64,000 bases of DNA from NCBI GenBank assembly GCA_964016885.1, contig OZ024744.1:14446001-14510000 (forward strand), read 5' to 3'. This document shows, one piece after another, positions 501 through 64,000 of the stretch. A model generated the notes under the pieces. It did no database searches. It was given only the letters and a program-made list of their open reading frames with translations, and was not told where the DNA came from. The position numbers were made by a program, and so were the translations under genes. The stretch's first letter is position 1. Each line of letters starts with the position of its first letter. This stretch comes from Eledone cirrhosa. Lineage: Eukaryota.

Positions 501-506
501 TAAATA

Positions 507-1659: not shown

Positions 1660-2000
1660 CGGTCTGGTGGAGAAAGTGGGGGGGGGGGCAGTCGGTGGTA
1701 AGTGTATCTGGACAGGCAAGGGGTCAGGAGAAGGATGTAGTGTGGGTAGGGGTAGGAGTGGTTAGTGGGTGGGAGTGAAGTAGAAGAAGAAGGGGCATAA
1801 TGACCATAGTGTGGTAGGGTAAGTCTATTTATAGATGGAGCTTATAGGCTGAAGGAGTATTTCGAAGTGAAGAATTAAAAGTAAAAAGTAGATTGTATAG
1901 AAGAAAAGGAGCAGATAGTTAAATAAAGTTGTAAATAAGGTAAAATAAGATCAGGTAAAATATAGGGGTTTAAAAATAGGTAGAGTGGATTATATGGGTG
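1660..2000. other. Purine-rich, strand-asymmetric low-complexity segment with a G11 run and G-tracts
   Basis: G11 at 1678-1688, GGGTAGGGGTAGGAGTGGTTAGTGGGTGGG at about 1744-1773, then A/G-rich sequence with few C on the + strand up to about 2000. Confidence 0.55.
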
Positions 2001-2311
2001 GTAATCAGTGATGAATTATATGTACTATGTGTATGTATACTGCATATGTAGAGGCATACATAAAAGTAGACTGGGAAGTTATAGAAGATTTTACACTGAA
2101 ATGTATGAATAAAACAGTTAAATATTACTTTAATGAGTCATCATCATCATCATTTCATTTTAAGTCCACTTTTCCCAGCTTGCTAGGGTGGGACGGGAAC
2201 TGATTCTGGCTTGATTTCTACAGCTGGATGCCCTTCCTAACACCAACCACATTTACAGTGAGTGCTGGGTGCTTTTTTGCCGTGGCACCTCCATGACCAC
2301 TTTGCAGTTGA

Positions 2312-2337
2312 ATGATAGGGACCCCAGTCCCTATCAT
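2312..2337. repeat. Perfect 11-bp inverted repeat (hairpin) inside the SINE
   Basis: ATGATAGGGAC (2312-2322), loop CCCA, then GTCCCTATCAT (2327-2337). Confidence 0.9.
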
Positions 2338-2417
2338 CTCATTGCTACAGCTGAGTAAACTGGAGCAATGTGAAATAAAGTGTCTGGCTCAAGGAAACAA
2401 CACATCGCCCGGTCTGA

Positions 2418-2471
2418 GAATTGAACTCACAACCTTTCGATTGCAAGGCCAATGCTCTAACCACTATGCCA
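2418..2471 (-). promoter_or_regulatory. Internal RNA polymerase III type-2 promoter (A box and B box) of the SINE
   Basis: The A box TGGCATAGTGG fits TRGCNNARYGG. The B-box-like GAGTTCAATTC lies in a T-arm-like hairpin, TGAG-TTCAATT-CTCA. The boxes are 32 nt apart, as in tRNA genes. Confidence 0.75.
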
Positions 2472-5400
2472 TGTGCCTCCATTGCAAGGCCAATGCTCAA
2501 ACCACTAAGTCATGTGCGTCCATTGCAAGGCCAGTGCTCTAACCACTAAGTCATGTGCGTCCATTGCAAGGCCAGTGCTCTAACCACTAAGTCATGTGCG
2601 TCCATTGCAAGGCCAGTGCTCTAACCACTAATTCATGTGCCTCCATTGCAAGGCCAGTGCTCTAACCACTAAGTCATGTGGCTCCATTGCAAGGCCAATG
2701 CTCTAACCACTAAGCCATGTCCCTCCATTGCAAGGCCAATGCTCTAACCAATAAGCCATGTAACTCTATTGCAAGGTCAATACGCTAACCACTAAGCCAT
2801 GTGCCTCCATTGCAAAGCCAATGCTCTAACCACTAAGCCATGTGCCTCCAATACAAGGCCAATGCTCTAACCACTAAGCAATGTACCTCCATTGCAAGGC
2901 CAATGCTCTAACCACTAAGTCATGTGCCTCCATTGCAAGGCCAATGCTCTAACCACTAAGCCATGTGCCTCCAATGCAAGGCCAATGCTCTAACCACTAA
3001 ACCATGTGCCTCCATTGCAAGACCAATGCTCTAACCACTAAGCCATGTGCCTCCATTGCAAGTCAATGCTCTAACCACTAAGCCATGTGCCTCCATTGCA
3101 AGGCCAATGCTCTAACCACTAAGCCATGTGCCTCCATTGCAACACCAATGCTCTAACAACTAAGCCATGTGCCTCTATTGCAAGGCCAATGTTCTAACCA
3201 CTAAGTCATGTGCCTCCATTGCAAGGCCAATACTCTAACCACTAAGCCATGTGCCTCCATTGCAAGGCCAATGCTCTAACCACTAAGCCATGTGCCTACA
3301 TTGCAAGGCCAATGCTCTAACCACTAAGCCAAGTGCCTCCATTGCAAGGCCAATGCTCTAACCATTAAGTCATGTGCCTCCATTGCAAGGTGAATGCTCT
3401 AACCACTAAGTCATGTACCTCCATTGCAAGGCCAATGCTCTAACCACTAAGAGATGTGCCTCCATTGCAAGGCCAATGCTCTAACCACTAAGTCATGTGC
3501 CTCCATTGCAAGGCCAATGCTCTAACCACTAAGTCATGTGGCTCCATTGCAAGGCCAATGCTCTAACCACTAAGCCATGTGCCTCCATTGCAAGGCCAAT
3601 GCTCTAACCACTAAGCCATGTGCCTCCATTGCAAGGCCAATGCTCTAACCCCTAAGCCATGTGCCTCCATTGCAAGGCCAATGCTCTAACCACTAAGTCA
3701 TGTGCCTCCATTGCAACGCTAATGCTCTAACCACTAAGTCATGTGCCTCCATTGCAAGGCCAATGCTCTAACCACTAAGTCGTGTGCCTCCATTGCAAGG
3801 CCAATGCTCTAACCACTAAGCCATGTGCCGCAATTGCAAGGCCAATACTCTAACCACTAAGCCATGTGCCTCCATTGCAAGGCCAATGTTCTAACCACTA
3901 AGCCATGTGCCTCCATTGCAATGCCAATGCTCTAACCACTAAGCCATGTGCCTCCATTGCAAGGCCAATGCTCTAACCACTAAACCATGTGCATCCATTG
4001 CAAGGCCAATGCTCTAACCACTAAACCATGTGCCTACATTGCAAGTCCAATGCTCTAACCACTAAGCCATGTGCCTCCATTGCAAGGTCAATGCGATAAC
4101 CACTAAGCCATGTGCCTCCATTGCAAAGACAATGCTCTAACCACTAAGCCATGTGCCTCCATTACAAGGCCAATGCTCTAACCACTAAGCCATGTGCCTC
4201 CATTGCAAGGCCAATGCTCTAAACAATAAGCCATGTGCCTCCATTTCAAGGCCATTGCTCTAACCACTAAGCCATGTGCCTCCATTGCAAGGCCAACGTT
4301 CTAACCACTAAGCATTGTGCCCCCATTGCAAGGCCAATGCTCTAACCACTAAGTCATGTGCCTCCATTGCAAGGCCAATGCTCTAACCACTAAGCCATGT
4401 GCCTCCATTGCAAGGTCAATGCTCTAACCACTAAGTCATGTGCCTCCATTGCAAGGCCAATGCTCTAATCACTAAGTCATGTGCCTCCATTGCAAGGCCA
4501 ATGCTCTAACCACTAAGTCATGTGCCTCCATTGAAAGGCCAATGCTGTAACCCCTAAGCCATGTACCTCCATTGCAAGGCCAATGCTCTAACCACTAAGC
4601 CATGTGCCTCCATTGCAAGGTCAATGCTCTAACCACTAAGTCATGTGCCTCCATTGCAAGGCCAATGCTCTAATCACTAAGTCATGTGCCTCCATTGCAA
4701 GGCCAATGCTCTAACCACTAAGTCATGTGCCTCCATTGAAAGGCCAATGCTGTAACCACTAAGCCATGTACCTCCATTGCAAGGCCAATGCTCTAACCAC
4801 TAAGCCATGTGCCTCCATTACAAGGCCAATGCTCTAAACACTAAGCCATGTGCCTCCACTGCAAGACCAATGCTCTAACCACTAAGTCATCTGCCTCCAT
4901 TGCAAGGCCAATGCTCTAACCACTAAGTCACCTGCCTCCATTGCAAGGCCAATGCTCTAACCACTAAACCATGTGCCTCCATTGCAAGGCCAATGCTCTA
5001 ACCACTAAGCCATGTGCTTCCATTGCAAGGCCAATGCTCTGACCACTAAGCCATGTGCCTCCATTGCAAGTCAATGCTCTAACCACTAAGCCATGTGCCT
5101 CCATTGCAAGGCCAATGCTCTAACCACTAAGTCATGTGCCTCCATTGCAAGGCCAATGCTCTAACCACTAAGCCATGTGCCTCCTTTGCAATGCCAATGC
5201 TCTAACCACTAAGCCATGTGCCTCCATTGCAAGGCCAATGCTCTAACCACTAAACCATGTGCATCCATTGTAAGGCTAATGCTCTAACCACTAAGCAATG
5301 TGCCTCCATTGCAAGGCCAATGCTCTAACCACTAAGCCATGTGCCTCCATTGCAAGGCCAATGTTCTAACCACTAAGTCATGTGCCTCCATTGCAAGGCC

Positions 5401-8400
5401 AATGCTCTAACCACTAAGCCATGTGCCTCCATTGCAAGGCCAATGATCTAACCACTAAGCAATGTGCCTACATTGCAAAACCAATGCTCTAACCACTAAG
5501 CCATGTGCCTCCATTGCAAGGCCAATGCTCTAACCACTAAGTCATGTGCCTCCATTGCAAGGCGAATGCTCTAACCACTAAGTCATGTCCCTCCATTGCA
5601 AGGCCAATGCTCTAACCACTAAGCCATGTGCCTCCATTGCAAGGCCAATGCTCTAACCACTAAATCATGTGCCTCCATTGCAAGGCCAATGCACTAACCA
5701 CTAAGTCATGTGCCTCCATTGCAAGGCCAATGCTCTAACCACTAAGCCATGTGCCTCACTTGCAAGGCCAATGCTCTAACCACTAAGCCATGTGACTCCA
5801 TTGCAAGGCCAATCCTCTTACCACTAAGCCATGTGCCTCCATTGCAAGGCCAATACTTTAACCACTAAGTCATGTGCCTCCATTGCAACGCCAATGCTCT
5901 AACCACTAAGTCATGTGCCTCCATTGCAAGGCCAATGCTCTAACCACTAAGTCATGCGCCTCCATTGCAAGGCCAATGCTCTAACCACTAAGCCATGTGC
6001 CTCCATTGCAAGGCCAATGCTCTAACCACTAAGCCATGTGCCTCCATTACAAGGCCAATGCTCTAAACACTAAGCCATGTGCCTCCATTGCAAGACCAAT
6101 GCTCTAACCACTAAGTCATCTGCCTCCATTGCAAGGCCAATGCTCTAACCACTAAGTCACCTGCCTCCATTGCAAGGCCAATGCTCTAACCACTAAACCA
6201 TGTGCCTCCATTGCAAGGCCAATGCTCTAACCACTAAGCCATGTGCCTCCATTGCAAGGCCAATGCTCTAACCACTAAGTCATGTGCCTCCATTGCTAGG
6301 CCAATGCTCTGACCACTAAGCCATGTGCCTCCATTGCAAGTCAATGCTCTAACCACTAAGCCATGTGCCTCCATTGCAAGGCCAATGCTCTAACCACTAA
6401 GTCATGTGCCTCCATTGCAAGGCCAATGCTCTAACCACTAAGCCATGTGCCTCCTTTGCAATGCCAATGCTCTAACCACTAAGCCATGTGCCTCCATTGC
6501 AAGGCCAATGCTCTAACCACTAAACCATGTGCATCCATTGTAAGGCTAATGCTCTAACCACTAAGCCATGTGCCTCCATTGCAAGGCCAATGCCCTAACC
6601 ACTAAGCCATGTGCCTCCATTGCAAGGCCAATGTTCTAACCACTAAGTCATGTGCCTCCATTGCAAGGCCAATGCTCTAACCACTAAGCCATGTGCCTCC
6701 ATTGCAAGGCTAATGATCTAACCACTAAGCAATGTGCCTACATTGCAAAACCATTGCTCTAACCACTAAGCCATGTGCCTCCATTGCAAGGCCAATGCTC
6801 TAACCACTAAGTCATGTGCCTCCATTGCAAGGCGAATGCTCTAACCACTAACTCATGTACCTCCATTGCAAGGCCAATGCTCTAACCACTAAGCCATGTG
6901 CCTCCATTGCAAGGCCAATGCTCTAACCACTAAATCATGTGCCTCCATTGCAAGGCCAATGCACTAACCACTAAGTCATATGCCTCCATTGCAAGGCCAA
7001 TGCTCTAACCACTAAGCCATGTGCCTCCATTGCAAGGCCAATGCTCTAACTACTAAGCCATGTGCCTCCATTGCAAGGCCAATGCTCTAACCACTAAGCC
7101 ATGTGCCTCCATTGCAAGGCCAATGCTCTAACCATTAAGCCATGTGCCTCCATTGCAAGGCCAATGCTCTAACCACTAAGCCATGTGCCTCCCTTGCAAG
7201 GCCAAAGCTCTAACCACTAAGTCATGTGACTCCATTGCAAGGCCAATGCTCTAACCGCTAAGCCATGTGCATCCATTGCAAAGCCAATGCTCTAACCACT
7301 AAGTCATGTGCCTCCATTGCAAGGCCAATGCTCTAACCACTAAGTCATGTACCTCCATTGCAAGGCCAATACTCTAACCACTAAGTCATGTCCCTCCATT
7401 GCAAGGCCAATGCTCTAACCACTAAGCCATGTGCCTCCATTGCAAGGCCAATGCTCTAACCACTAAATCATGTGCCTCCATTGCAAGGCCAATGCACTAA
7501 CCACTAAGTCATGTGCCTCCATTGCAAGGCCAATGCTCTAACCACTAAGCCATGTGCCTCACTTGCAAGGCCAATGCTCTAACCACTAAGCCATGTGACT
7601 CCATTGCAAGGCCAATCCTCTTACCACTAAGCCATGTGCCTCCATTGCAAGGCCAATACTTTAACCACTAAGTCATGTGCCTCCATTGCAACGCCAATGC
7701 TCTAACCACTAAGTCATGTGCCTCCATTGCAAGGCCAATGCTCTAACCACTAAGTCATGCGCCTCCATTGCAAGGCCAATGCTCTAACCACTAAGCCATG
7801 TGCCTCCATTGCAAGGCCAATGCTCTAACCACTAAGCCATGTGCCTCCATTACAAGGCCAATGCTCTAAACACTAAGCCATGTGCCTCCATTGCAAGACC
7901 AATGCTCTAACCACTAAGTCATCTGCCTCCATTGCAAGGCCAATGCTCTAACCACTAAGTCACCTGCCTCCATTGCAAGGCCAATGCTCTAACCACTAAA
8001 CCATGTGCCTCCATTGCAAGGCCAATGCTCTAACCACTAAGCCATGTGCCTCCATTGCAAGGCCAATGCTCTAACCACTAAGTCATGTGCCTCCATTGCT
8101 AGGCCAATGCTCTGACCACTAAGCCATGTGCCTCCATTGCAAGTCAATGCTCTAACCACTAAGCCATGTGCCTCCATTGCAAGGCCAATGCTCTAACCAC
8201 TAAGTCATGTGCCTCCATTGCAAGGCCAATGCTCTAACCACTAAGCCATGTGCCTCCTTTGCAATGCCAATGCTCTAACCACTAAGCCATGTGCCTCCAT
8301 TGCAAGGCCAATGCTCTAACCACTAAACCATGTGCATCCATTGTAAGGCTAATGCTCTAACCACTAAGCCATGTGCCTCCATTGCAAGGCCAATGCCCTA

Positions 8401-11400
8401 ACCACTAAGCCATGTGCCTCCATTGCAAGGCCAATGTTCTAACCACTAAGTCATGTGCCTCCATTGCAAGGCCAATGCTCTAACCACTAAGCCATGTGCC
8501 TCCATTGCAAGGCTAATGATCTAACCACTAAGCAATGTGCCTACATTGCAAAACCATTGCTCTAACCACTAAGCCATGTGCCTCCATTGCAAGGCCAATG
8601 CTCTAACCACTAAGTCATGTGCCTACATTGCAAAACCATTGCTCTAACCACTAAGCCATGTGCCTCCATTGCAAGGCCAATGCTCTAACCACTAAGTCAT
8701 GTGCCTCCATTGCAAGGCGAATGCTCTAACCACTAACTCATGTACCTCCATTGCAAGGCCAATGCTCTAACCACTAAGCCATGTGCCTCCATTGCAAGGC
8801 CAATGCTCTAACCACTAAGCCATGTGCCTCCATTGCAAGGCCAATGCTCTAACTACTAAGCCATGTGCCTCCATTGCAAGGCCAATGCTCTAACCACTAA
8901 GCCATGTGCCTCCATTGCAAGGCCAATGCTCTAACCATTAAGCCATGTGCCTCCATTGCAAGGCCAATGCTCTAACCACTAAGCCATGTGCCTCCCTTGC
9001 AAGGCCAAAGCTCTAACCACTAAGTCATGTGACTCCATTGCAAGGCCAATGCTCTAACCGCTAAGCCATGTGCATCCATTGCAAAGCCAATGCTCTAACC
9101 ACTAAGTCATGTGCCTCCATTGCAAGGCCAATGCTCTAACCACTAAGTCATGTACCTCCATTGCAAGGCCAATACTCTAACCACTAAGTCATGTCCCTCC
9201 ATTGCAAGGCCAATGCTCTAACCACTAAGCCATGTGCCTCCATTGCAAGGCCAATGCTCTAACCACTAAATCATGTGCCTCCATTGCAAGGCCAATGCAC
9301 TAACCACTAAGTCATGTGCCTCCATTGCAAGGCCAATGCTCTAACCACTAAGCCATGTGCCTCACTTGCAAGGCCAATGCTCTAACCACTAAGCCATGTG
9401 ACTCCATTGCAAGGCCAATCCTCTTACCACTAAGCCATGTGCCTCCATTGCAAGGCCAATACTTTAACCACTAAGTCATGTGCCTCCATTGCAACGCCAA
9501 TGCTCTAACCACTAAGTCATGTGCCTCCATTGCAAGGCCAATGCTCTAACCACTAAGTCATGCGCCTCCATTGCAAGGCCAATGCTCTAACCACTAAGCC
9601 ATGTGCCTCCATTGCAAGGCCAATGCTCTAACCACTAAGCCATGTGCCTCCATTACAAGGCCAATGCTCTAAACACTAAGCCATGTGCCTCCATTGCAAG
9701 ACCAATGCTCTAACCACTAAGTCATCTGCCTCCATTGCAAGGCCAATGCTCTAACCACTAAGTCACCTGCCTCCATTGCAAGGCCAATGCTCTAACCACT
9801 AAACCATGTGCCTCCATTGCAAGGCCAATGCTCTAACCACTAAGCCATGTGCCTCCATTGCAAGGCCAATGCTCTAACCACTAAGTCATGTGCCTCCATT
9901 GCTAGGCCAATGCTCTGACCACTAAGCCATGTGCCTCCATTGCAAGTCAATGCTCTAACCACTAAGCCATGTGCCTCCATTGCAAGGCCAATGCTCTAAC
10001 CACTAAGTCATGTGCCTCCATTGCAAGGCCAATGCTCTAACCACTAAGCCATGTGCCTCCTTTGCAATGCCAATGCTCTAACCACTAAGCCATGTGCCTC
10101 CATTGCAAGGCCAATGCTCTAACCACTAAACCATGTGCATCCATTGTAAGGCTAATGCTCTAACCACTAAGCCATGTGCCTCCATTGCAAGGCCAATGCC
10201 CTAACCACTAAGCCATGTGCCTCCATTGCAAGGCCAATGTTCTAACCACTAAGTCATGTGCCTCCATTGCAAGGCCAATGCTCTAACCACTAAGCCATGT
10301 GCCTCCATTGCAAGGCTAATGATCTAACCACTAAGCAATGTGCCTACATTGCAAAACCATTGCTCTAACCACTAAGCCATGTGCCTCCATTGCAAGGCCA
10401 ATGCTCTAACCACTAAGTCATGTGCCTACATTGCAAAACCATTGCTCTAACCACTAAGCCATGTGCCTCCATTGCAAGGCCAATGCTCTAACCACTAAGT
10501 CATGTGCCTCCATTGCAAGGCGAATGCTCTAACCACTAACTCATGTACCTCCATTGCAAGGCCAATGCTCTAACCACTAAGCCATGTGCCTCCATTGCAA
10601 GGCCAATGCTCTAACCACTAAGCCATGTGACTCCATTGCAAGGCCAATCCTCTTACCACTAAGCCATGTGCCTCCATTGCAAGGCCAATACTTTAACCAC
10701 TAAGTCATGTGCCTCCATTGCAACGCCAATGCTCTAACCACTAAGTCATGTGCCTCCATTGCAAGGCCAATGCTCTAACCACTAAGTCATGCGCCTCCAT
10801 TGCAAGGCCAATGCTCTAACCACTAAGCCATGTGCCTCCATTGCAAGGCCAATGCTCTAACCACTAAGCCATGTGCCTCCATTACAAGGCCAATGCTCTA
10901 AACACTAAGCCATGTGCCTCCATTGCAAGACCAATGCTCTAACCACTAAGTCATCTGCCTCCATTGCAAGGCCAATGCTCTAACCACTAAGTCACCTGCC
11001 TCCATTGCAAGGCCAATGCTCTAACCACTAAACCATGTGCCTCCATTGCAAGGCCAATGCTCTAACCACTAAGCCATGTGCCTCCATTGCAAGGCCAATG
11101 CTCTAACCACTAAGTCATGTGCCTCCATTGCTAGGCCAATGCTCTGACCACTAAGCCATGTGCCTCCATTGCAAGTCAATGCTCTAACCACTAAGCCATG
11201 TGCCTCCATTGCAAGGCCAATGCTCTAACCACTAAGTCATGTGCCTCCATTGCAAGGCCAATGCTCTAACCACTAAGCCATGTGCCTCCTTTGCAATGCC
11301 AATGCTCTAACCACTAAGCCATGTGCCTCCATTGCAAGGCCAATGCTCTAACCACTAAACCATGTGCATCCATTGTAAGGCTAATGCTCTAACCACTAAG

Positions 11401-14400
11401 CCATGTGCCTCCATTGCAAGGCCAATGCCCTAACCACTAAGCCATGTGCCTCCATTGCAAGGCCAATGTTCTAACCACTAAGTCATGTGCCTCCATTGCA
11501 AGGCCAATGCTCTAACCACTAAGCCATGTGCCTCCATTGCAAGGCTAATGATCTAACCACTAAGCAATGTGCCTACATTGCAAAACCATTGCTCTAACCA
11601 CTAAGCCATGTGCCTCCATTGCAAGGCCAATGCTCTAACCACTAAGTCATGTGCCTCCATTGCAAGGCGAATGCTCTAACCACTAACTCATGTACCTCCA
11701 TTGCAAGGCCAATGCTCTAACCACTAAGCCATGTGCCTCCATTGCAAGGCCAATGCTCTAACCACTAAATCATGTGCCTCCATTGCAAGGCCAATGCACT
11801 AACCACTAAGTCATATGCCTCCATTGCAAGGCCAATGCTCTAACCACTAAGCCATGTGCCTCCATTGCAAGGCCAATGCTCTAACTACTAAGCCATGTGC
11901 CTCCATTGCAAGGCCAATGCTCTAACCACTAAGCCATGTGCCTCCATTGCAAGGCCAATGCTCTAACCATTAAGCCATGTGCCTCCATTGCAAGGCCAAT
12001 GCTCTAACCACTAAGCCATGTGCCTCCCTTGCAAGGCCAAAGCTCTAACCACTAAGTCATGTGACTCCATTGCAAGGCCAATGCTCTAACCGCTAAGCCA
12101 TGTGCATCCATTGCAAAGCCAATGCTCTAACCACTAAGTCATGTGCCTCCATTGCAAGGCCAATGCTCTAACCACTAAGTCATGTACCTCCATTGCAAGG
12201 CCAATACTCTAACCACTAAGTCATGTACCTCCATTACAAGGCCAATACTCTAACCACGAAGCCATGTGCCTCCATTGCAAGGCCAATGCTCTAACCACTA
12301 GGTCATGTGCCTCCATTGCAAGGCCAATGCTGTAACCACTAAGCCATGTGCCTCCATTGCAAGGCCAATGCTCTAACCACTAAGCCATGTGCCTCCATTG
12401 CAAGGTCAATGCTCTAACCAATAAGCCATGTGCCTCCATTGCAAGGCCAATGCTCTAACCACTAAACCATGTGCCTCCATTGCAAGGCCAATGCTCTAAC
12501 CACTAGGTCATGTGCCTCCATTGCAACGCCAGTGCTCCTACCACTAAGTCATGTGCCTCCATTGCAAGGACAATGCTCTAACCACTAAGTCATGCGCCTA
12601 CATTGCAAGGCCAATGCTCTAACCACTAAGCCATGTGCCGCAATTGCAAGGCCAATGCTCTAACCACTAAGTCATGTGCCTCCATTGCAAGGCCAATGCT
12701 CTAACCACTAAGCCATGTGCCTCCATTGCAAGGCCAATGCTCTAACCACTACGTCATGTGCCTCCATTGCAAGGCCAATGCTCTAACCACTAAGTCATGT
12801 ACCTCCATTGCAAGCCAATCCTCTAACCACTAAGCCATGTCCCTCCATTGCAAGGCCAATGCTCTAACCATTAAGCCATGTCCCTCAATTGCAAGGCCAA
12901 TGCTCTAACCAATAAGCCATGTACCTCTATTGCAAGGTCAATGCGCTAACCACTAAGCCATGTGCCTCCATTGCAAAGCCAATGCTCTAACCACTAAGCC
13001 ATGTGCCTCCATTACAAGGCCAATGTTCTAACCACAAAGCCATGTCCCTCCATTGCAAGGCCAATGCTCTAACCACTAAGGCATGTACCTCCATTGCAAG
13101 GCCAATGCGCTAACCACTAAGCCATGTGCCTCCATTGCAAAGCCAATGCTCTAATCACTAAGCCATGTGCCTCCATTACAAGGCCAATGCTCTAACCACT
13201 AAGCCATGTGCCTCCATTGCAAGGCCAATGCTCTAACCACTAAGCATGTGCCTCCATTGCAAGGCCAATGCTCTAACCACTAAGCCATGTGCCTCCATTT
13301 CAAGGCCAATGCTCTAACCACTAAGCCATGTGCCTCCATTGCAAGGCCAATGCTCTAAACAATAAGCCATGTGCCTCCAATGCAAGGCCAATGCTCTAAC
13401 CACTAAGCCATGTGCCTCCATTGCAAGGCCAATGCTCTAACCACTAAGTCATGTGCCTCCATGGCAACGCCAATGCTCCTACCACTAATGCATGTGCCTC
13501 CATTGCAAGGCCAATGCTCTAACCACTAAGTCATGCGCATCCATTTTAAGGCCAATGCTCTAACCACTAAGCCATGTGCCGCAATTGCAAGGCCAATGCT
13601 CTAACCACTAAGTCATGTGCCTCCATTGCAAGGCCAATGCTCTAACCACTAAGCCATATGCCTCCATTGCAAGGCCAATGCTCTAACCACTAAGTCATGT
13701 GCCTCCATTGCAAGGCCAATGCTCTAACCACTAAGTCATGTACCTCCATTGCAAGGCCAATGCTCTAACCACTAAGCCATGTCCCTCCATTGCAAGGCCA
13801 ATGCTCTAACCACTAAGCCATGTCCCTCCATTGCAAGGCCAATGCTCTAACCAATAAGCCATGTAACTCTATTGCAAGGTCAATACGCTAACCACTAAGC
13901 CATGTGCCTCCATTGCAAAGCCAATGCTCTAACCACTAAGCCATGTGCCTCCAATACAAGGCCAATGCTCTAACCACTAAGCAATGTACCTCCATTGCAA
14001 GGCCAATGCTCTAACCACTAAGTCATATGCCTCCATTGCAAGGCCAATGCTCTAACCACTAAGCCATGTGCCTCCAATGCAAGGCCAATGCTCTAACAAC
14101 TAAACCATGTGCCTCCATTGCAAGACCAATGCTCTAACCACTAAGCCATGTGCCTCCATTGCAAGTCAATGCTCTAACCACTAAGCCATGTGCCTCCATT
14201 GCAAGGCCAATGCTCTAACCACTAAGTCATGTGCCTCCATTGCAAGGCCAATGCTCTAACCACTAAGCCATGTGCCTCCATTGCAACGCCAATGCTCTAA
14301 CAACTAAGCCATGTGCCTCTATTGCAAGGCCAATGTTCTAACCACTAAGTCATGTGCCTCCATTGCAAGGCCAATGCTCTAACCACTAAGCCATGTGCCT

Positions 14401-50400: not shown

Positions 50401-53400
50401 CAATGCTCTAACCACTAAACCATCTGCCTCCATTGCAAGGCCAATGCTCTAACCACTAAGCCATGTGCCTCCATTGCAAGGCAAATGCTCTAACCACTAA
50501 GTCATGTGCCTCCATTGCAAGGCCAATGCTCTAACCACTAAACCATCTGCCCCCATTGCAAGGCCAATGCTCTAACCACTAAGTCATGTGCCTCCATTGC
50601 AAGGCCAATGCTCTAACCACTAAGCCATGTGCCTCCATTGCAAGGCCAATGCTCTAACCACTAAGCCATCTTCCTCCATTGCAAGATCAATGCTCTAACC
50701 ACTAAGTCATGTTCCTCCATTGCAAATCCAATGCTCTAACCACTAAGCCATGTGCCTCCATTGCAAGGCCAATGCTCTAACCACTAAGCCATGTGCCACC
50801 ATTGCAAGGCCAATGCTCTAACCACTAAGTCATGTGCCACCATTGCAAGGCTAATGCTCTAACCACTAAACCATCTGCCTCCGTTGCAAGGCCAATGCTC
50901 TAACCACTAAGCCATCTGCCTCCATTACAAGGCCAATGCTCTAACCACTAAGCCATGTGCCTCCATTGCAAGGCCAATGCTCTAACCACTAAGCCATGTG
51001 CCTCCATTGCAAGGCCAATGTTCTAACCACTAATTCATGTGCCTCCATTACAAGGCCAACGCTCTAACCACTAAGCCATGTGCCTCCATTGCAAGGCCAA
51101 TGCTCTAACCACTAAGCCATGTGCCTCCATTGCAAGGCCAATGCTCTAACCACTAAGCCATGTATCTCCATTGCAAGGACAATGCTCTAACCACTAAGTC
51201 ATGTGCCTCCATTGCAAGGCCAATGCTCTAACCACTAAGCCATGTGCCTCCATTGCAAGGCCAATGCTCTAACCACTAAGCCATGTGCCTCCATTGCAAG
51301 GCCAATGCTCTAACCACTAAGCCATGTGCCTCCACTGCAAGGCCAATGCTCTAACCACTAAGTCATGTGCCTCCATTGCAAGGCCAATGCTCTAACCACT
51401 AAGTCATGTGCCTCCATTGCAAGGCCAATGCTCTAACCACTAAGCCATGTGCCTCCATTGCAAGGCCAATGCTCTAACAACTAAGCCATGTGCCTCCATT
51501 GCAAAGCCAACGCTCTAACCACTAAGCCATGTGCCTCCATTGCAAGGCCAATGCTCTAACCACTAAGCCATGTGCCTCCATTGCAAGGCCAATGCTCTAA
51601 CCACTAAGCCATGTGCCTCCATTGCAAGGCCAATGCTCTAACCACTAAGCCATGTGCCTCCATTGCAAGGCCAATGTTCTAACCACTAAGTCATGTGCCT
51701 CCATTGCAAGGCCAATGCTCTAACCACTAAGTCATGTGCCTCCATTGCAAGGCCAATGCTCTAACCACTAAGCCATGTGCCTCCATTGCAAGGCCAATAC
51801 TCTAACCACTAAGTCATGTGCCTCCATTGCAAGGCCAATGCTCTAACCACTAAGTCATGTGCCTCCATTGCAAGGTCAATGCTCTAACCACTAAGTCATG
51901 TGCCTCCATTGCAAGGCCAATGCTCTAACCACTAAGTCATGTGCCTCCATTGCAAGGCCAATGCTCTAACCACTAAGTCATGTGCCTCCATTGCAAGGCC
52001 AATGCTCTAACCACTAAGTCATGCGCCTCCATTGCAAGGCCAATGCTCTAACCACTAAGCCATGTGCCTCGATTGCAAGGCCAATGCTCTAACCACTAAG
52101 CCATGTGCCTCCATTGCAAGGCCAATTCTCTAACCACTAAGCCATGTGCCTCCATTGCAAGGCCAATGCTCTAACCACTAAGTCATGTGCCTCCATTGCA
52201 AGGCCAATGCTCTAACCACTAAGCCATGTGCCTCCACTGCAAGGCCAATGCTCTAACCACTAAGTCATGTGCCTCCATTGCAAGGCCAATGCTCTAACCA
52301 CTAAGTCATGTGCCTCCATTGCAAGGCCAATGCTCTAACCACTAAGCCATGTGCCTCCATTGCAAGGCCAATGCTCTAACCACTAAGCCATGTGCCTCCA
52401 TTGCAAGGCCAATGTTCTAACCACTAAGTCATGTGCCTCCATTGCAAGGCCAATGCTCTAACCACTAAGTCATGTGCCTCCATTGCAAGGCCAATGCTCT
52501 AACCACTAAACCATCTGCCTCCATTGCAAGGCCAATGCTCTAACCACTAAGTCATGTGCCTCCATTGCAAGGCCAATGCTCTAACCACTAAGCCATGTGC
52601 CTCCATTGCAAGGCCAATACTCTAACCACTAAGTCATGTGCCTCCATTGCAAGGCCAATGCTCTAACCACTAAGTCATGTGCCTCCATTGCAAGGTCAAT
52701 GCTCTAACCACTAAGTCATGTGCCTCCATTGCAAGGCCAATGCTCTAACCACTAAGTTATGTGCCTCCATTGCAAGGCCAATGCTCTAACCACTAAGTCA
52801 TGTGCCTCCATTGCAAGGCCAATGCTCTAACCACTAAGTCATGCGCCTCCATTGCAAGGCCAATGCTCTAACCACTAAGCCATGTGCCTCGATTGCAAGG
52901 CCAATGCTCTAACCACTAAGCCATGTGCCTCCATTGCAAGGCCAATTCTCTAACCACTAAGCCATGTGCCTCCATTGCAAGGCCAATGCTCTAACCACTA
53001 AGTCATGTGCCTCCATTGCAAGGCCAATGCTCTAACCACTAAACCATCTGCCTCCATTGCAAGGCCAATGCTCTAACCACTAAGCCATGTGCCTCCATTG
53101 CAAGGCCAATGCTCCAACCACTAAGTCATGTGCCTCCATTGCAAGGCCAATGCTCTAACCACTAAACCATCTGCCTCCATTGCAAGGCCAATGCTCTAAC
53201 CACTAAGCCATGTGCCTCCATTGCAAGGCCAATGCTCTAACCACTAAGCCATGTTCCTCCATTGCAAGGCCAATGCTCTAACCACTAAGTCATGTTCCTC
53301 CATTGCAAATCCAATGCTCTAACCACTAAGCCATGTGCCTCCATTGCAAGGCCAATGCTCTAACCACTAAGCCATGTGCCACCATTGCAAGGTCAATGCT

Positions 53401-56400
53401 CTAAACACTAAGCCATGTGCCACCATTGCAAGGCCAATGCTCTAACCACTAAACCATCTGCCTCCGTTGCAAGGCCAATGCTCTAACCATTAAGCCATCT
53501 GCCTCCATTGCAAGGCCAATGCTCTAACCACTAAGCCATGTGCCTCCATTGCAAGGCCAATGCTCTAACCAATAAGCCAAGTGCCTCCATTGCAAGGCCA
53601 ATACTCTAACCACTAAGCCATGTGCCTCCATTGCAAGGCCAATGCACTAACCAATAAGCCATGTGCCTCCATTGCAAGGCCAATGCTCTAACCACTAAGC
53701 AATGTGCCTCCATTGCAAGGCCAATGCTCTAACCACTAAGCCATGTTCCTCCATTGCAAGGACAATGCTCTAACCACTAAGTCATGTTCCTCCATTGCAA
53801 AGCTAATGCTCTAACCACTAAGCCATGTGCCCCCATTGCAAGGCCAATGCTCTAACCACTAAGCCATGTGCCACCATTGCAAGGCCAATGCTCTAACCAC
53901 TAAACCATCTGCCTCCGTTGCAAGGCCAATGCTCTAACCACTATGCCATCTGCCTCCATTGCAAGGCCAATGCTCTAACCACTAAGCCATGTGCCTCCAT
54001 TGCAAGGCGAATGCTCTAACCAATAAGCCATGTGCCTCCATTGCAAGGCCAATGTTCTAACCACTAAGTCATGTGCCTCCATTGCAAGGCAAATGCTCTA
54101 ACCACTAAGTCATGTGCCTCCATTGCAAGGCCAATGCTCTAACCACTAAGACATATGCCTCCATTGCAAGGCCAATACTCTAACCACTAAGTCATGTGCC
54201 TCCATTGCAAGGTCAATGCTCTAACCACTAAGACATATGCCTCCATTGCAAGGCCAATGCTCTAACCACTAAGTCATGTGCCTCCATTGCAAGGTCAATG
54301 CTCTAACCACTAAGCCATGTGCCTCCATTGCAAGGCCAATGCTCTAACCACTAAGCCATGTGCCTCCATTGCAAGGCCAATTCTCTAACCACTAAGCCAT
54401 GTGCCTCCATTGCAAGGCCAATGCTCTAACCACTAAGTCATGTGCCTCCATTGCAAGCCCAATGCTCTAACCACTAAACCATCTGCCTCCATTGCAAGGC
54501 CAATGCTCTAACCACTAAGCCATGTGCCTCCATTGCAAGGCCAATGCTCTAACCACTAAGTCATGTGCCTCCATTGCAAGGCCAATGCTCTAACCACTAA
54601 ACCATCTGCCTCCATTGCAAGGCCAATGCTCTAACCACTAAGTCATGTGCCTCCCATTGCAAGGCCAATGCTCTAACCACTAAGCCATGTGCCCACATTG
54701 TAAGGCCAATGCTCTAACCACTAAGCCATGTTCCTCCATTGCAAGGCCAATGCTCTAACCACTAAGTCATGTTCTTCCATTGCAAATCCAATGCTCTAAC
54801 CACTAAGCCATGTATCTCCATTGCAAGGCCAATGCTCTAACCACTAAGCCATGTGCCACCATTGCAAAGCCAATGCTCTAACCACTATGTCATGTGCCAC
54901 CATTGCAAGGCCAATGCTCTAACCACTAAACCATCTGCCTCCGTTGCAAGGCCAATGCTCTAACCACTAAGCCATCTGCCTCCATTGCAAGGCCAATGCT
55001 CTAACCACTAAGCCATGTGCCTCCATTGCAAGGCCAATGCTCTAACCACTAAGCCATGTGCCTCCACTGCAAGGCCAATGCTCTAACCACTAAGTCATGT
55101 GCCTCCATTGCAAGGCCAATGCTCTAACCACTAAGTCATGTGCCTCCATTGCAAGGCCAATGCTCTAACCACTAAGCCCTGTGCCTCCATTGCAAGGCCA
55201 ATGCTCTAACAACTAAGCCATGTGCCTCCATTGCAAGGCCAACGCTCTAACCACTAAGCCATGTGCCTCCATTGCAAGGCCAATGCTCTAACCACTAAGC
55301 CATGTGCCTCCATTGCAAGGCCAATGCTCTAACCACTAAGCCATGTGCCTTCATTGCAAGGCCAATGCTCTAACAACTAAGCCATGTGCCTCCATTGCAA
55401 GGCCAACGCTCTAACCACTAAGCCATGTGCCTCCATTGCAAGGCCAATGCTCTAACCACTAAGCCATGTGCCTCCATTGCAAGGCCAATGCTCTAACCAC
55501 TAAGCCATGTGCCTCCATTGCAAGGCCAATGTTCTAACCACTAATTCATGTGCCTCCATTACAAGGCCAACGCTCTAACCACTAAGCCATGTGCCTCCAT
55601 TGCAAGGCCAATGCTCTAACCACTAAGCCATGTGCCTCCATTGCAAGGCCAATGCTCTAACCACTAAGCCATGTATCTCCATTGCAAGGACAATGCTCTA
55701 ACCACTAAGTCATGTGCCTCCATTGCAAGGCCAATGCTCTAACCACTAAGCCATGTGCCTCCATTGCAAGGCCAATGCTCTAACCACTAAGCCATGTGCC
55801 TCCATTGCAAGGCCAATGCTCTAACCACTAAGCCATGTGCCTCTACTGCAAGGCCAATGCTCTAACCACTAAGTCATGTGCCTCCATTGCAAGGCCAATG
55901 CTCTAACCACTAAGTCATGTGCCTCCATTGCAAGGCCAATGCTCTAACCACTAAGCCATGTGCCTCCATTGCAAGGCCAATGCTCTAACAACTAAGCCAT
56001 GTGCCTCCATTGCAAAGCCAACGCTCTAACCACTAAGCCATGTGCCTCCATTGCAAGGCCAATGCTCTAACCACTAAGCCATGTGCCTCCATTGCAAGGC
56101 CAATGCTCTAACCACTAAGCCATGTGCCTCCATTGCAAGGCCAATGCTCTAACCACTAAGCCATGTGCCTCCATTGCAAGGCCAATGTTCTAACCACTAA
56201 GTCATGTGCCTCCATTGCAAGGCCAATGCTCTAACCACTAAGTCATGTGCCTCCATTGCAAGGCCAATGCTCTAACCACTAAACCATCTGCCTCCATTGC
56301 AAGGCCAATGCTCTAACCACTAAGTCATGTGCCTCCATTGCAAGGCCAATGCTCTAACCACTAAGCCATGTGCCTCCATTGCAAGGCCAATACTCTAACC

Positions 56401-59400
56401 ACTAAGTCATGTGCCTCCATTGCAAGGCCAATGCTCTAACCACTAAGTCATGTGCCTCCATTGCAAGGCCAATGCTCTAACCACTAAGTCATGTGCCTCC
56501 ATTGCAAGGCCAATGCTCTAACCACTAAGTCATGTGCCTCCATTGCAAGGCCAATGCTCTAACAACTAAGTCATGTGCCTCCATTGCAAGGCCAATGGTC
56601 TAACCACTAAGTCATGCGCCTCCATTGCAAGGCCAATGCTCTAACCACTAAGCCATGTGCCTCGATTGCAAGGCCAATGCTCTAACCACTAAGCCATGTG
56701 CCTCCATTGCAAGGCCAATTCTCTAACCACTAAGCCATGTGCCTCCATTGCAAGGCCAATGCTCTAACCACTAAGTCATGTGCCTCCATTGCAAGGCCAA
56801 TGCTCTAACCACTAAGCCATGTGCCTCCACTGCAAGGCCAATGCTCTAACCACTAAGTCATGTGCCTCCATTGCAAGGCCAATGCTCTAACCACTAAGTC
56901 ATGTGCCTCCATTGCAAGGCCAATGCTCTAACCACTAAGCCATGTGCCTCCATTGCAAGGCCAATGCTCTAACAACTAAGCCATGTGCCTCCATTGCAAA
57001 GCCAACGCTCTAACCACTAAGCCATGTGCCTCCATTGCAAGGCCAATGCTCTAACCACTAAGCCATGTGCCTCCATTGCAAGGCCAATGCTCTAACCACT
57101 AAGCCATGTGCCTCCATTGCAAGGCCAATGTTCTAACCACTAAGTCATGTGCCTCCATTGCAAGGCCAATGCTCTAACCACTAAGTCATGTGCCTCCATT
57201 GCAAGGCCAATGCTCTAACCACTAAACCATCTGCCTCCATTGCAAGGCCAATGCTCTAACCACTAAGTCATGTGCCTCCATTGCAAGGCCAATGCTCTAA
57301 CCACTAAGCCATGTGCCTCCATTGCAAGGCCAATACTCTAACCACTAAGTCATGTGCCTCCATTGCAAGGCCAATGCTCTAACCACTAAGTCATGTGCCT
57401 CCATTGCAAGGTCAATGCTCTAACCACTAAGTCATGTGCCTCCATTGCAAGGCCAATGCTCTAACCACTAAGTTATGTGCCTCCATTGCAAGGCCAATGC
57501 TCTAACCACTAAGTCATGTGCCTCCATTGCAAGGCCAATGCTCTAACCACTAAGTCATGCGCCTCCATTGCAAGGCCAATGCTCTAACCACTAAGCCATG
57601 TGCCTCGATTGCAAGGCCAATGCTCTAACCACTAAGCCATGTGCCTCCATTGCAAGGCCAATTCTCTAACCACTAAGCCATGTGCCTCCATTGCAAGGCC
57701 AATGCTCTAACCACTAAGTCATGTGCCTCCATTGCAAGACCAATGCTCTAACCACTAAACCATCTGCCTCCATTGCAAGGCCAATGCTCTAACCACTAAG
57801 CCATGTGCCTCCATTGCAAGGCCAATGCTCCAACCACTAAGTCATGTGCCTCCATTGCAAGGCCAATGCTCTAACCACTAAACCATCTGCCTCCATTGCA
57901 AGGCCAATGCTCTAACCACTAAGCCATGTGCCTCCATTGCAAGGCCAATGCTCTAACCACTAAGCCATGTTCCTCCATTGCAAGGCCAATGCTCTAACCA
58001 CTAAGCCATGTTCCTCCATTGCAAATCCAATGCTCTAACCACTAAGCCATGTGCCTCCATTGCAAGGCCAATGCTCTAACCACTAAGTCATGTGCCTCCA
58101 TTGCAAGGCCAATGCTCTAACCACTAAGTCATGTGCCTCCATTGCAAGGCCAATGCTCTAACCACTAAGTCATGTGCCTCCATTGCAAGGCCAATGCTCT
58201 AACCACTAAGTCATGCGCCTCCATTGCAAGGCCAATGCTCTAACCACTAAGCCATGTGCCTCGATTGCAAGGCCAATGCTCTAACCACTAAGCCATGTGC
58301 CTCCATTGCAAGGCCAATTCTCTAACCACTAAGCCATGTGCCTCCATTGCAAGGCCAATGCTCTAACCACTAAGTCATGTGCCTCCATTGCAAGGCCAAT
58401 GCTCTAACCACTAAGCCATGTGCCTCCACTGCAAGGCCAATGCTCTAACCACTAAGTCATGTGCCTCCATTGCAAGGCCAATGCTCTAACCACTAAGTCA
58501 TGTGCCTCCATTGCAAGGCCAATGATCTAACCACTAAGCCATGTGCCTCCATTGCAAGGCCAATGCTCTAACCACTAAGCCATGTGCCTCCATTGCAAGG
58601 CCAATGTTCTAACCACTAAGTCATGTGCCTCCATTGCAAGGCCAATGCTCTAACCACTAAGTCATGTGCCTCCATTGCAAGGCCAATGCTCTAACCACTA
58701 AACCATCTGCCTCCATTGCAAGGCCAATGCTCTAACCACTAAGTCATGTGCCTCCATTGCAAGGCCAATGCTCTAACCACTAAGCCATGTGCCTCCATTG
58801 CAAGGCCAATACTCTAACCACTAAGTCATGTGCCTCCATTGCAAGGCCAATGCTCTAACCACTAAGTCATGTGCCTCCATTGCAAGGTCAATGCTCTAAC
58901 CACTAAGTCATGTGCCTCCATTGCAAGGCCAATGCTCTAACCACTAAGTCATGTTCCTCCATTGCAAATCCAATGCTCTAACCACTAAGCCATGTGCCTC
59001 CATTGCAAGGCCAATGCTCTAACCACTAAGTCATGTGCCTCCATTGCAAGGCCAATGCTCTAACCACTAAGTCATGCGCCTCCATTGCAAGGCCAATGCT
59101 CTAACCACTAAGTCATGTGCCTCCATTGCAAGGCCAATGCTCTAACCACTAAGTCATGTGCCTCCATTGCAAGGTCAATGCTCTAACCACTAAGTCATGT
59201 TCCTCCATTGCAAGGCCAATGCTCTAACCACTAAGTCATGTTCCTCCATTGCAAATCCAATGCTCTAACCACTAAGCCATGTGCCTCCATTGCAAGGCCA
59301 ATGCTCTAACCACTAAGTCATGTGCCTCCATTGCAAGGCCAATGCTCTAACCACTAAGTCATGTGCCTCCATTGCAAGGCCAATGCTCTAACCACTAAGT

Positions 59401-62400
59401 CATGTGCCTCCATTGCAAGGCCAATGCTCTAACCACTAAGTCATGCGCCTCCATTGCAAGGCCAATGCTCTAACCACTAAGCCATGTGCCTCGATTGCAA
59501 GGCCAATGCTCTAACCACTAAGCCATGTGCCTCCATTGCAAGGCCAATTCTCTAACCACTAAGCCATGTGCCTCCATTGCAAGGCCAATGCTCTAACCAC
59601 TAAGTCATGTGCCTCCATTGCAAGGCCAATGCTCTAACCACTAAGCCATGTGCCTCCACTGCAAGGCCAATGCTCTAACCACTAAGTCATGTGCCTCCAT
59701 TGCAAGGCCAATGCTCTAACCACTAAGTCATGTGCCTCCATTGCAAGGCCAATGCTCTAACCACTAAGCCATGTGCCTCCATTGCAAGGCCAATGCTCTA
59801 ACCACTAAGCCATGTGCCTCCATTGCAAGGCCAATGTTCTAACCACTAAGTCATGTGCCTCCATTGCAAGGCCAATGCTCTAACCACTAAGTCATGTGCC
59901 TCCATTGCAAGGCCAATGCTCTAACCACTAAACCATCTGCCTCCATTGCAAGGCCAATGCTCTAACCACTAAGTCATGTGCCTCCATTGCAAGGCCAATG
60001 CTCTAACCACTAAGCCATGTGCCTCCATTGCAAGGCCAATACTCTAACCACTAAGTCATGTGCCTCCATTGCAAGGCCAATGCTCTAACCACTAAGTCAT
60101 GTGCCTCCATTGCAAGGTCAATGCTCTAACCACTAAGTCATGTGCCTCCATTGCAAGGCCAATGCTCTAACCACTAAGTTATGTGCCTCCATTGCAAGGC
60201 CAATGCTCTAACCACTAAGTCATGTGCCTCCATTGCAAGGCCAATGCTCTAACCACTAAGTCATGCGCCTCCATTGCAAGGCCAATGCTCTAACCACTAA
60301 GCCATGTGCCTCGATTGCAAGGCCAATGCTCTAACCACTAAGCCATGTGCCTCCATTGCAAGGCCAATTCTCTAACCACTAAGCCATGTGCCTCCATTGC
60401 AAGGCCAATGCTCTAACCACTAAGTCATGTGCCTCCATTGCAAGGCCAATGCTCTAACCACTAAGTCATGTGCCTCCATTGCAAGGCCAATGCTCTAACC
60501 ACTAAACCATCTGCCTCCATTGCAAGGCCAATGCTCTAACCACTAAGCCATGTGCCTCCATTGCAAGGCCAATGCTCCAACCACTAAGTCATGTGCCTCC
60601 ATTGCAAGGCCAATGCTCTAACCACTAAACCATCTGCCTCCATTGCAAGGCCAATGCTCTAACCACTAAGCCATGTGCCTCCATTGCAAGGCCAATGGTC
60701 TAACCACTAAGCCATGTTCCTCCATTGCAAGGCCAATGCTCTAACCACTAAGTCATGTTCCTCCATTGCAAATCCAATGCTCTAACCACTAAGCCATGTG
60801 CCTCCATTGCAAGGCCAATGCTCTAACCACTAAGCCATGTGCCACCATTGCAAGGTCAATGCTCTAAACACTAAGCCATGTGTCACCATTGCAAGGCCAA
60901 TGCTCTAACCACTAAACCATCTGCCTCCGTTGCAAGGCCAATGCTCTAACCATTAAGCCATCTGCCTCCATTGCAAGGCCAATGCTCTAACCACTAAGCC
61001 ATGTGCCTCCATTGCAAGGCCAATGCTCTAACCAATAAGCCAAGTGCCTCCATTGCAAGGCCAATACTCTAACCACTAAGCCATGTGCCTCCATTGCAAG
61101 GCCAAAGCACTAACCAATAAGCCATGTGCCTCCATTGCAAGGCCAATGCTCTAACCACTAAGCAATGTGCCTCCATTGCAAGGCCAATGCTCTAACCACT
61201 AAGCCATGTTCCTCCATTGCAAGGACAATGCTCTAACCACTAAGTCATGTTCCTCCATTGCAAAGCTAATGCTCTAACCACTAAGCCATGTGCCCCCATT
61301 GCAAGGCCAATGCTCTAACCACTAAGCCATGTGCCACCATTGCAAGGCCAATGCTCTAACCACTAAACCATCTGCCTCCGTTGCAAGGCCAATGCTCTAA
61401 CCACTATGCCATCTGCCTCCATTGCAAGGCCAATGCTCTAACCACTAAGCCATGTGCCTCCATTGCAAGGCGAATGCTCTAACCAATAAGCCATGTGCCT
61501 CCATTGCAAGGCCAATGTTCTAACCACTAAGTCATGTGCCTCCATTGCAAGGCCAATGCTCTAACCACTAAGTCATGTGCCTCCATTGCAAGGCCAATGC
61601 TCTAACCACTAAGACATATGCCTCCATTGCAAGGCCAATACTCTAACCACTAAGTCATGTGCCTCCATTGCAAGGTCAATGCTCTAACCACTAAGACATA
61701 TGCCTCCATTGCAAGGCCAATGCTCTAACCACTAAGTCATGTGCCTCCATTGCAAGGTCAATGCTCTAACCACTAAGTCATGTGCCTCCATTGCAAGGCC
61801 AATGCTCTAACCACTAAGTCATGTGCCTACATTGCAAGGCCAATGCTCTAACCACTAAGTCATGTGCCTCCATTGCAAGGCCAATGCTCTAACCACTAAG
61901 CCATGTGCCTCCATTGCAAGGCCAATGCTCTAACCACTAAGTCATGTGCCTCCATTGCAAGGCCAATGCTCTAACCACTAAACCATCTGCCTCCATTGCA
62001 AGGCCAATGCTCTAACCACTAAGTCATGTGCCCCCCATTGCAAGGCCAATGCTCTAACCACTAAGCCATGTGCCTCCATTGTAAGGCCAATGCTCTAACC
62101 ACTAAGCCATGTTCCTCCATTGCAAGGCCAATGCTCTAACCACTAAGTCATGTTCCTCCATTGCAAATCCAATGCTCTAACCACTAAGCCATGTGCCTCC
62201 ATTGCAAGGCCAATGCTCTAACCACTAAGCCATGTGCCACCATTGCAAAGCCAATGCTCTAACCACTATGTCATGTGCCACCATTGCAAGGCCAATGCTC
62301 TAACCACTAAACCATCTGCCTCCGTTGCAAGGCCAATGCTCTAACCACTAAGCCATCTGCCTCCATTGCAAGGCCAATGCTCTAACCACTAAGCCATGTG

Positions 62401-64000
62401 CCTGCATTGCAAGGCCAATGCTCTAACCACTAAGCCATGTGCCTCCACTGCAAGGCCAATGCTCTAACCACTAAGTCATGTGCCTCCATTGCAAGGCCAA
62501 TGCTCTAACCACTAAGTCATGTGCCTCCATTGCAAGGCCAATGCTCTAACCACTAAGCCCTGTGCCTCCATTGCAAGGCCAATGCTCTAACAACTAAGCC
62601 ATGTGCCTCCATTGCAAGGCCAACGCTCTAACCACTAAGCCATGTGCCTCCATTGCAAGGCCAATGCTCTAACCACTAAGCCATGTGCCTCCATTGCAAG
62701 GCCAATGCTCTAACCACTAAGCCATGTGCCTCCATTGCAAGGCCAATGCTCTAACAACTAAGCCATGTGCCTCCATTGCAAGGCCAACGCTCTAACCACT
62801 AAGCCATGTGCCTCCATTGCAAGGCCAATGCTCTAACCACTAAGCCATGTGCCTCCATTGCAAGGCCAATACTCTAACCACTAAGCCATGTGCCTCCATT
62901 GCAAGGCCAATGCTCTAACCACTAAGCCATGTGCTTCCATTCCAAGGCCAATGCTCTAACCACTAAGCCATGTGCCTCCATTGCAAGGCCAATGTTCTAA
63001 CCACTAATTCATGTGCCTCCATTACAAGGCCAACGCTCTAACCACTAAGCCATGTGCCTCCATTGCAAGGCCAATGCTCTAACCACTAAGCCATGTGCCT
63101 CCATTGCAAGGCCAATGCTCTAACCACTAAGCCATGTATCTCCATTGCAAGGACAATGCTCTAACCACTAAGTCATGTGCCTCCATTGCAAGGCCAATGC
63201 TCTAACCACTAAGCCATGTGCCTCCATTGCAAGGCCAATGCTCTAACCACTAAGCCATGTGCCTCCATTGCAAGGCCAATGCTCTAACCACTAAGCCATG
63301 TGCCTCCACTGCAAGGCCAATGCTCTAACCACTAAGTCATGTGCCTCCATTGCAAGGCCAATGCTCTAACCACTAAGTCATGTGCCTCCATTGCAAGGCC
63401 AATGCTCTAACCACTAAGCCATGTGCCTCCATTGCAAGGCCAATGCTCTAATAACTAAGCCATGTGCCTCCATTGCAAAGCCAACGCTCTAACCACTAAG
63501 CCATGTGCCTCCATTGCAAGGCCAATGCTCTAACCACTAAGCCATGTGCCTCCATTGCAAGGCCAATGCTCTAACCACTAAGCCATGTGCCTCCATTGCA
63601 AGGCCAATGCTCTAACCACTAAGCCATGTGCCTCCATTGCAAGGCCAATGTTCTAACCACTAAGTCATGTGCCTCCATTGCAAGGCCAATGCTCTAACCA
63701 CTAAGTCATGTGCCTCCATTGCAAGGCCAATGCTCTAACCACTAAACCATCTGCCTCCATTGCAAGGCCAATGCTCTAACCACTAAGTCATGTGCCTCCA
63801 TTGCAAGGCCAATGCTCTAACCACTAAGCCATGTGCCTCCATTGCAAGGCCAATACTCTAACCACTAAGTCATGTGCCTCCATTGCAAGGCCAATGCTCT
63901 AACCACTAAGCCATGTATCTCCATTGCAAGGCCAATGCTCTAACCACTAAGTCATGTGCCTCCATTGCAAGGCCAATGCTCTAACCACTAAGTCATGTGC
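2440..64000 (-). repeat. 41-bp tandem satellite, about 1,500 head-to-tail copies, derived from the tRNA-like SINE head; continues past the window end
   Basis: The + strand consensus is ATTGCAAGGCCAATGCTCTAACCACTAAG(C/T)CATGTGCCTCC (41 nt), or GGAGGCACATG(G/A)CTTAGTGGTTAGAGCATTGGCCTTGCAAT on the minus strand. The span of 61,561 bp divided by 41 gives about 1,500 copies. Most units carry 0-3 substitutions, with occasional 40- or 42-bp units. I saw no spacers, inversions or foreign insertions. Confidence 0.99.

Follow-up and report, generated by a model that had tools for sequence, protein, structure and literature searches.

A 203-kb tandem array of a SINE head, joined to a SINE body, in the last AK7 intron of Eledone cirrhosa

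We analysed a stretch of 64,000 nucleotides from Eledone cirrhosa (GenBank assembly GCA_964016885.1, contig OZ024744.1; G000:C28:14,446,001-14,510,000), here called the window, and read the neighbouring stretches to follow its tandem array past the window. The minus strand carries the last coding exon of the gene for adenylate kinase 7 (AK7) and, within the last intron of that gene, a short interspersed element (SINE) joined to a long head-to-tail array of a 41-nt unit. AK7 is a gene of cilia and of the sperm tail (flagella). The features are collected in Table 1.

The array, its SINE and the host intron

Tandem Repeats Finder (TRF) places one tandem array at 2440-64000 of the window, with a period of 41 and 1,501.9 copies. 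The original prediction, about 1,500 units over more than 61 kb, is accurate inside the window and falls well short for the whole array, which continues in a single orientation to a total of 203,201 bp and 4,958 units. These comprise 4,812 units of 41 nt, 105 of 40 nt, 40 of 42 nt and one of 29 nt; their mean identity to the consensus is 96.4%, and 526 distinct 41-mers occur among them. Inside the 203,201 bp we found no N, no inverted junction motif and no SINE body. The far end of the array stops exactly at position 1 of the unit; beyond it come AT and then a run of (GT)n.

At its near end the array passes into a 343-nt SINE (2138-2480, minus strand) with an A box, a B box, a body and a (TGA)n tail, the two boxes being assigned by motif. 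The array unit is the head of this SINE family, positions 1-41, which ends just past the anticodon loop, and in the terminal unit the head runs on into body and tail. The claim that this terminal unit, 2440-2480, is the head of a complete SINE was borne out, since head and body are continuous across the 41|42 boundary in all 14 of the best-matching other loci, three of which have a shortened head. SINE positions 10-67 match the Rfam tRNA model (model positions 8-63) weakly, with 21.5 bits and E 0.047 against a gathering cut-off of 29 bits, as expected for a decayed tRNA-derived head; ARAGORN found no tRNA. The parent SINE is a large, young, dispersed family in the same genome: the exact head-body junction has at least 19,036 matches genome-wide, split evenly between the strands (control, 0), and about 19,200 intact heads lie outside the array (21,666 in total minus 2,454 in the array). 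Chance is excluded as a source of the head matches, because reversed control patterns gave 0 matches in 3 Gb. The copy attached to the array, referred to below as the founder, has a body that is 96-97% identical to the best other copies.

The exons on either side of the array belong to one gene. The translation of the last coding exon, AEYLFKNNPQVD followed by a stop, is identical at 11 of 12 positions to the C-terminus of octopus AK7 (P0001). The penultimate exon, of 53 codons, lies 1.1 kb past the far array end and terminates in GT. It carries the first 33 of the 42 positions of the Dpy-30 motif (E 2e-13), matches adenylate kinase 7 chains in the PDB (E 2e-20), shares 92% identity with the AK7 proteins of Octopus bimaculoides and O. 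sinensis and has a single match in the genome. A tblastn search with P0001 placed residues 569-596, 596-642 and 643-695 past the array and residues 696-707 in the window, ordered and on one strand, these being the four exons that passed a 70% filter within 304 kb. Because the flanking exons are consecutive, collinear and in phase, growth of the array in place is supported, and their collinearity is the best evidence for it. Together with the exact array ends, they also uphold the earlier proposal that the array grew in situ from one SINE insertion.

The last AK7 intron measures 206,267 bp, 203,201 bp of it array; a single head would leave it at about 3.1 kb, and the two preceding introns are about 15 and 8 kb. 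The SINE and its heads lie in the sense orientation of AK7, and neither AATAAA nor ATTAAA occurs on the AK7-sense strand of the array. We predict that the intron is transcribed through and spliced out, and no function of the array would be needed. In the preceding AK7 intron (L074:3700-8000, ~G000:C28:14,659,200-14,660,700) there are decayed frames of a long interspersed element (LINE), presumably endonuclease- and reverse-transcriptase-like, an assignment made by motifs.

Table 1. Features of the window and their continuation on the contig (window positions unless a contig position is given)
Feature	Position	Strand	Remarks
Last coding exon of AK7	439..477	-	12 codons + stop, preceded by pyrimidine tract and AG
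Last AK7 intron	478..64000, on to G000:C28:14,652,744	-	GT and AG ends, phase 0
Older decayed dispersed repeat adjoining SINE tail	840..2137	-	Presumably Penelope-like, by motifs only
Body of the putative founder SINE	2138..2439	-	B box ~2418-2428; (TGA)n tail ~2138-2152
Head of the putative founder SINE, positions 1-41	2440..2480	-	Terminal array unit; A box ~2461-2471
Head-to-tail array of the 41-nt head	2440..64000, on to G000:C28:14,651,640	-	~1,500 units within window, 4,958 total

The internal structure of the array bears on how it grew. No single higher-order period was found; the best lags shift along the array (44, 119, 120, 181, 227, 67 and 151 units). There are 186 identical blocks of at least 12 units, at lags of 44-938 units and with a longest block of 118 units, and such identical blocks at varied lags are marks of local DNA-level duplication. 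A variant at unit position 30 is present in 1,818 of the 4,812 41-nt units, throughout the array, a spread to be expected if the change arose while the array still had few units. The array units diverge by 3.6% from their consensus, while the founder diverges by 3.4% and other family members by 2.3-2.5% from the family majority. These similar values suggest that growth began about when the family spread.

Four sequencing runs aligned to window 1500-2521 were swamped by other SINE copies, and no piece extended across a junction. Depth at 2499, in the second unit, relative to 2467 was 5.9% in X1, 2.4% in X5 (another organism), 1.1% in X21 and 0.2% in X4, ratios that do not measure copy number and from which nothing is drawn.

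The older repeat that adjoins the SINE tail has 45 other matches to window 1560-2137, at 70-84% identity (40 candidates scored), and the scored paralogues lie nearly all on the four largest contigs. Three frame fragments of this repeat gave no Pfam hit; by their motifs we take them to resemble a reverse-transcriptase thumb and a GIY-YIG end, as in Penelope-like elements.

Sibling loci with repeated heads

The 18-nt head-to-head junction has 2,701 exact matches, 2,653 in the giant array, 46 at 23 other loci and 2 unlisted. Gap patterns added at least 39 loci with units of 27-40 nt (among the first 100 of 221 matches), 9 further loci with units of 42-55 nt, two of which share flanks, and one with units of 54-68 nt. 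Repeated heads are thus present at no fewer than 72 other loci, about 0.4% of the intact heads. The suggestion of a single-locus satellite consequently stands for the giant array alone, and fails for repeated heads as such. The AK7 array is the only giant head array found, by searches that rely on exact motifs and could therefore have missed diverged arrays.

Unit lengths differ between the other loci, from 28 to 51 nt and with more than a dozen lengths, and head numbers are mostly 2-4, followed by 7, 15, 15, 54, 108, 110 and 123. By an automated test, at least 52 of the 57 loci inspected retain the SINE body; many arrays lacking a SINE junction, the finding named beforehand as evidence against the founder, were not seen. 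Body-attached arrays include 54 x 40 nt (L180, C10), 15 x 34 nt (L181, C12) and 108 x 29 nt (L182/L196, C21). Exact target-site duplications of 6-8 bp occur at some sibling loci, among them one of 6 bp at a 15-head array and one of 7 bp at the 123-head array L078 (G000:C25:19,655,727-19,661,786), which looks very young, its heads being 99.4% identical. L078 and L051 (G000:C25:~871,400), 19 Mb apart, have in common a 50-nt head unit, a derived form that occurs there among 41-nt units.

Some of these loci have further peculiarities. At L077 (G000:C27:19,878,000-19,883,700), which has 15 heads, the body is also split into 49-nt tandem repeats of positions ~173-235, so that two arrays have come from one element. 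The 110-head array L076 (G000:C27:18,829,093-18,833,587) ends in a partial head and then a TA/CA-rich tandem repeat. L140 and L141 (G000:C1:341.6 and 342.3 Mb), 750 kb apart, have the same flanks and the same 43-nt double head, through either segmental duplication or duplication in the assembly. For an internal SINE segment, seven junction matches, L172-L178, are clustered over 16 kb (G000:C3:31,153,000-31,170,000) and are possibly another SINE-derived array.

Duplication is concentrated at the head. At least 39 loci per ~19,200 intact heads (0.20%) have head duplications of 27-40 nt, as against 12 loci per 40,689 intact copies (0.03%) for an internal control segment searched with the same geometry, an excess of at least 7-fold measured with one control segment. 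The usual junction is SINE 1..k, AT, SINE 1, with AT preceding the last head in 51 of 57 loci. When only units other than the 41-mer are counted the figure is 31 of 37, in comparison with 18 of 26 for the flanks of single-copy loci (4 of the 30 such loci were without a head start). The internal AT is present even at loci whose flank lacks a terminal AT (L078, L181, L113 and L131). At L120, L149 and L150 extra bases in the units copy the flank. The upstream head is 5'-cut in about 21 of 57 loci (an automated count of 28 over-calls units shorter than 32 nt), and some loci have nested stutters, e.g. L037, L042 and L118.

The bodies of multi-head copies form no cluster of their own. In a tree of 70 bodies, 25 from single-head copies and 45 from multi-head copies with the founder among them, 19 label changes were needed, compared with 20.7 in shuffles, and 123 of 500 shuffles were as low; L141 (duplicate of L140) and L108, L110, L134 and L149 (short or missing bodies) were left out. 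The nearest neighbours of the founder are both single- and multi-head copies. Since unit lengths vary by locus, one template cannot account for the repeated heads, and the many lengths together with the lack of clustering argue for repeated independent events. A single multi-head subfamily is accordingly not supported. Nesting of a SINE into a second SINE at position 41 was rejected, the dimer loci having no second body after the tail. Cleavage at the anticodon loop is not needed to explain the breakpoint at 41, because many other breakpoints occur and most share the AT.

Origin of the array

We read the locus as a SINE-derived satellite that fills the last AK7 intron with its founder attached, the head having been copied twice or a few times at insertion and then multiplied to 4,958 units by local DNA duplication, and we give this reading a probability of roughly 0.6. 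Reverse transcription of the SINE RNA by a partner LINE would have taken place at a site ending in AT, within an intron of about 2.8 kb. To judge from the sibling loci, re-priming on the head during the making of the 5' junction would then have joined positions 1..k via AT to position 1 again, and the AT that the head itself has at positions 40-41 would favour k=41. The making of this junction is known to involve microhomology and non-templated bases in R1 and R2 (PMC2718515). The kilobase blocks of units that are duplicated along the array may afterwards have been produced by unequal exchange or by other events of that kind at the DNA level.

Several observations weigh against this reading. 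The AK7 locus has no exact target-site duplication. A check for one at the far array end, proposed in the original prediction, gave a match of 5 of 6 bases between the sequence before the first head and that after the tail, a level reached by 22% of mismatched flank pairs and by 18 of 52 true pairs; the match is not above background and carries no evidential weight. Other copies of the near-flank repeat run on past 2137, and its continuation, which would have identified the empty site through paralogues, was not found in the 18 kb past the array; either the old copy had stopped at that point beforehand, or some of the target DNA has been lost. An empty or unexpanded allele was not seen. The body tree is poorly resolved, with 5 of 67 branches well supported. 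Internal SINE segments form arrays as well, the head excess rests on a single internal control, and L076 is the only inspected locus clearly without a body. Because the AK7 locus has a complete first head and a junction that falls on the AT of the SINE itself, slippage of the DNA at a later time is there indistinguishable from seeding at insertion.

Such slippage is the rival that has to be weighed most carefully. A single-headed SINE would have inserted, and the array would have been seeded later, with no part played by reverse transcription, by a DNA slip between the flank AT and the AT at positions 40-41. Duplication of internal segments (the 12 control loci and the 49-nt body repeats of L077), flank bases within the units of L120, L149 and L150, and the unstable (TA)n flanks that adjoin the head speak for slippage. 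Against it stand the concentration of duplications at the head, the internal AT at the four loci where the flank lacks it, and 5'-cut and stuttered upstream heads joined directly to flank DNA, and on balance we consider it rather unlikely. We think it improbable, to a further degree, that a multi-headed master copy was retrotransposed and that the AK7 locus arrived with at least two heads inherited from another locus. The 5'-cut upstream heads are the expected outcome of truncated copying of a multi-head RNA, and the 50-nt unit shared by the two C25 loci suggests that retrotransposition, or copying by some other route, may now and then affect multi-head copies; the dozen or more unit lengths, the lack of clustering of multi-head bodies and the mixed neighbours of the founder speak against a master copy as the source.

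We regard as very improbable that the junction is secondary, an array from elsewhere having recombined into the SINE or the assembly having been wrongly joined or inflated. The missing exact target-site duplication, the failure of the near-flank repeat to resume and the lack of a read spanning the junctions would all fit such an origin, and identical blocks of up to 118 units could include assembly errors. It is opposed by the consecutive AK7 exons on both sides and the exact array ends, by the 526 distinct 41-mers in ordered local blocks with no N, and by the finding of no other giant array of the 41-nt unit in the assembly. Seeding of the head at insertion, followed by local duplication, therefore remains the reading that we prefer.

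The initial duplication from which a satellite arises can rarely be observed, and here a young SINE family displays from 2 to 4,958 heads at dozens of independent loci. The common junction signature suggests how the seed is made, and the seeding step becomes testable. As conserved exons bracket the giant array, the intron can be located in the genome of any octopod and the expansion dated. A much broader proposal, which we consider doubtful, is that SINE insertion is a recurrent satellite-seeding step, after which about 0.4% of copies carry repeated heads, and that one of these copies grew to 203 kb and made the AK7 intron 65-fold larger. This would be an independent and datable case of intron gigantism in a flagellar gene, in which some 5,000 A-box heads might alter when AK7 is active, or its chromatin, in sperm or in cells with cilia.

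Comparison with known systems

The closest relatives of the AK7 array are the SINE-derived satellites of squamates, sSat1-3, most of which have a terminal unit running on into the SINE and the longest of which exceeds 1,200 monomers (Vassetzky et al. 2023, PMC10702118). The AK7 array has their defining features: at least four middle monomers head-to-tail, a dispersed parent SINE family and a terminal unit extending to the SINE end. The founder-attached architecture is thus already known, and the earlier statement that it is seldom this clear overstates its rarity, attachment of the founder at one end being usual among the squamate satellites as described (PMC10702118). In both systems part of a tRNA-related SINE is in tandem with a longer terminal unit leading into the element, and in both the short loci are many and heterogeneous, the long ones few and homogeneous (PMC10702118). 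The differences lie in scale and place. The squamate units reported are of ~70-290 nt, in numbers up to about 1,200, whereas here the unit is the 41-nt A-box half of the head, in 4,958 copies, in a cephalopod (PMC10702118). The squamate satellites tend to be subtelomeric (PMC10702118), unlike the one giant locus here, which is interstitial and intronic, 14.4 Mb into a 136.5-Mb contig and within a gene. As to origin, the squamate paper suggests unequal recombination (PMC10702118), while here locus-specific unit lengths and a common AT junction point to seeding at insertion. What differs from the squamate case is therefore the phylum, the head-only 41-nt unit, the size, the intronic position and the junction signature. 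In the part of the literature that we covered, we found neither a SINE-head satellite from a cephalopod nor an account of seeding at the 5' junction of a SINE.

Other element-derived repeats share single features with the array, and a review tabulates a number of them (PMC9659126). In the limpet Patella caerulea the pericentromeric PcH-Sat makes up ~10% of the genome; 118 bp of its 179-bp monomer are Nin-SINE-like (PMC11121367). It is likewise a molluscan satellite related to a SINE, and differs in that no attached founder is reported in its abstract (PMC11121367). The tandem SINEs described from bivalves consist of whole elements in arrays of 2-15 (PMC11481361). In the portion of the Octopus vulgaris repeat annotation available to us, the word satellite is absent except in microsatellites (PMC13282606). 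The 5' junctions of R1 and R2 resemble those of the sibling loci: at the priming site of the second strand they show microhomology and non-templated bases, and also short duplications. Unlike the heads described here, these are duplications of target DNA and seed no arrays in the account given (PMC2718515).

The AK7 intron also raises the question of whether a satellite intron of 200 kb is tolerated by a ciliary gene or alters it. The Drosophila genes kl-3 and kl-5, which encode axonemal dyneins, offer the nearest parallel. Their giant introns are filled with satellite (PMC6508621, PMC11207136), and as in AK7, where satellite makes up more than 98% of the intron, the gene is one needed for motile flagella. 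The likeness seen here is one of intron sequence and of the kind of host gene. Unlike the megabase simple repeats of kl-3 and kl-5 (PMC6508621, PMC11207136), the AK7 array occupies 0.2 Mb of one intron and consists of a SINE-head unit with a traceable founder.

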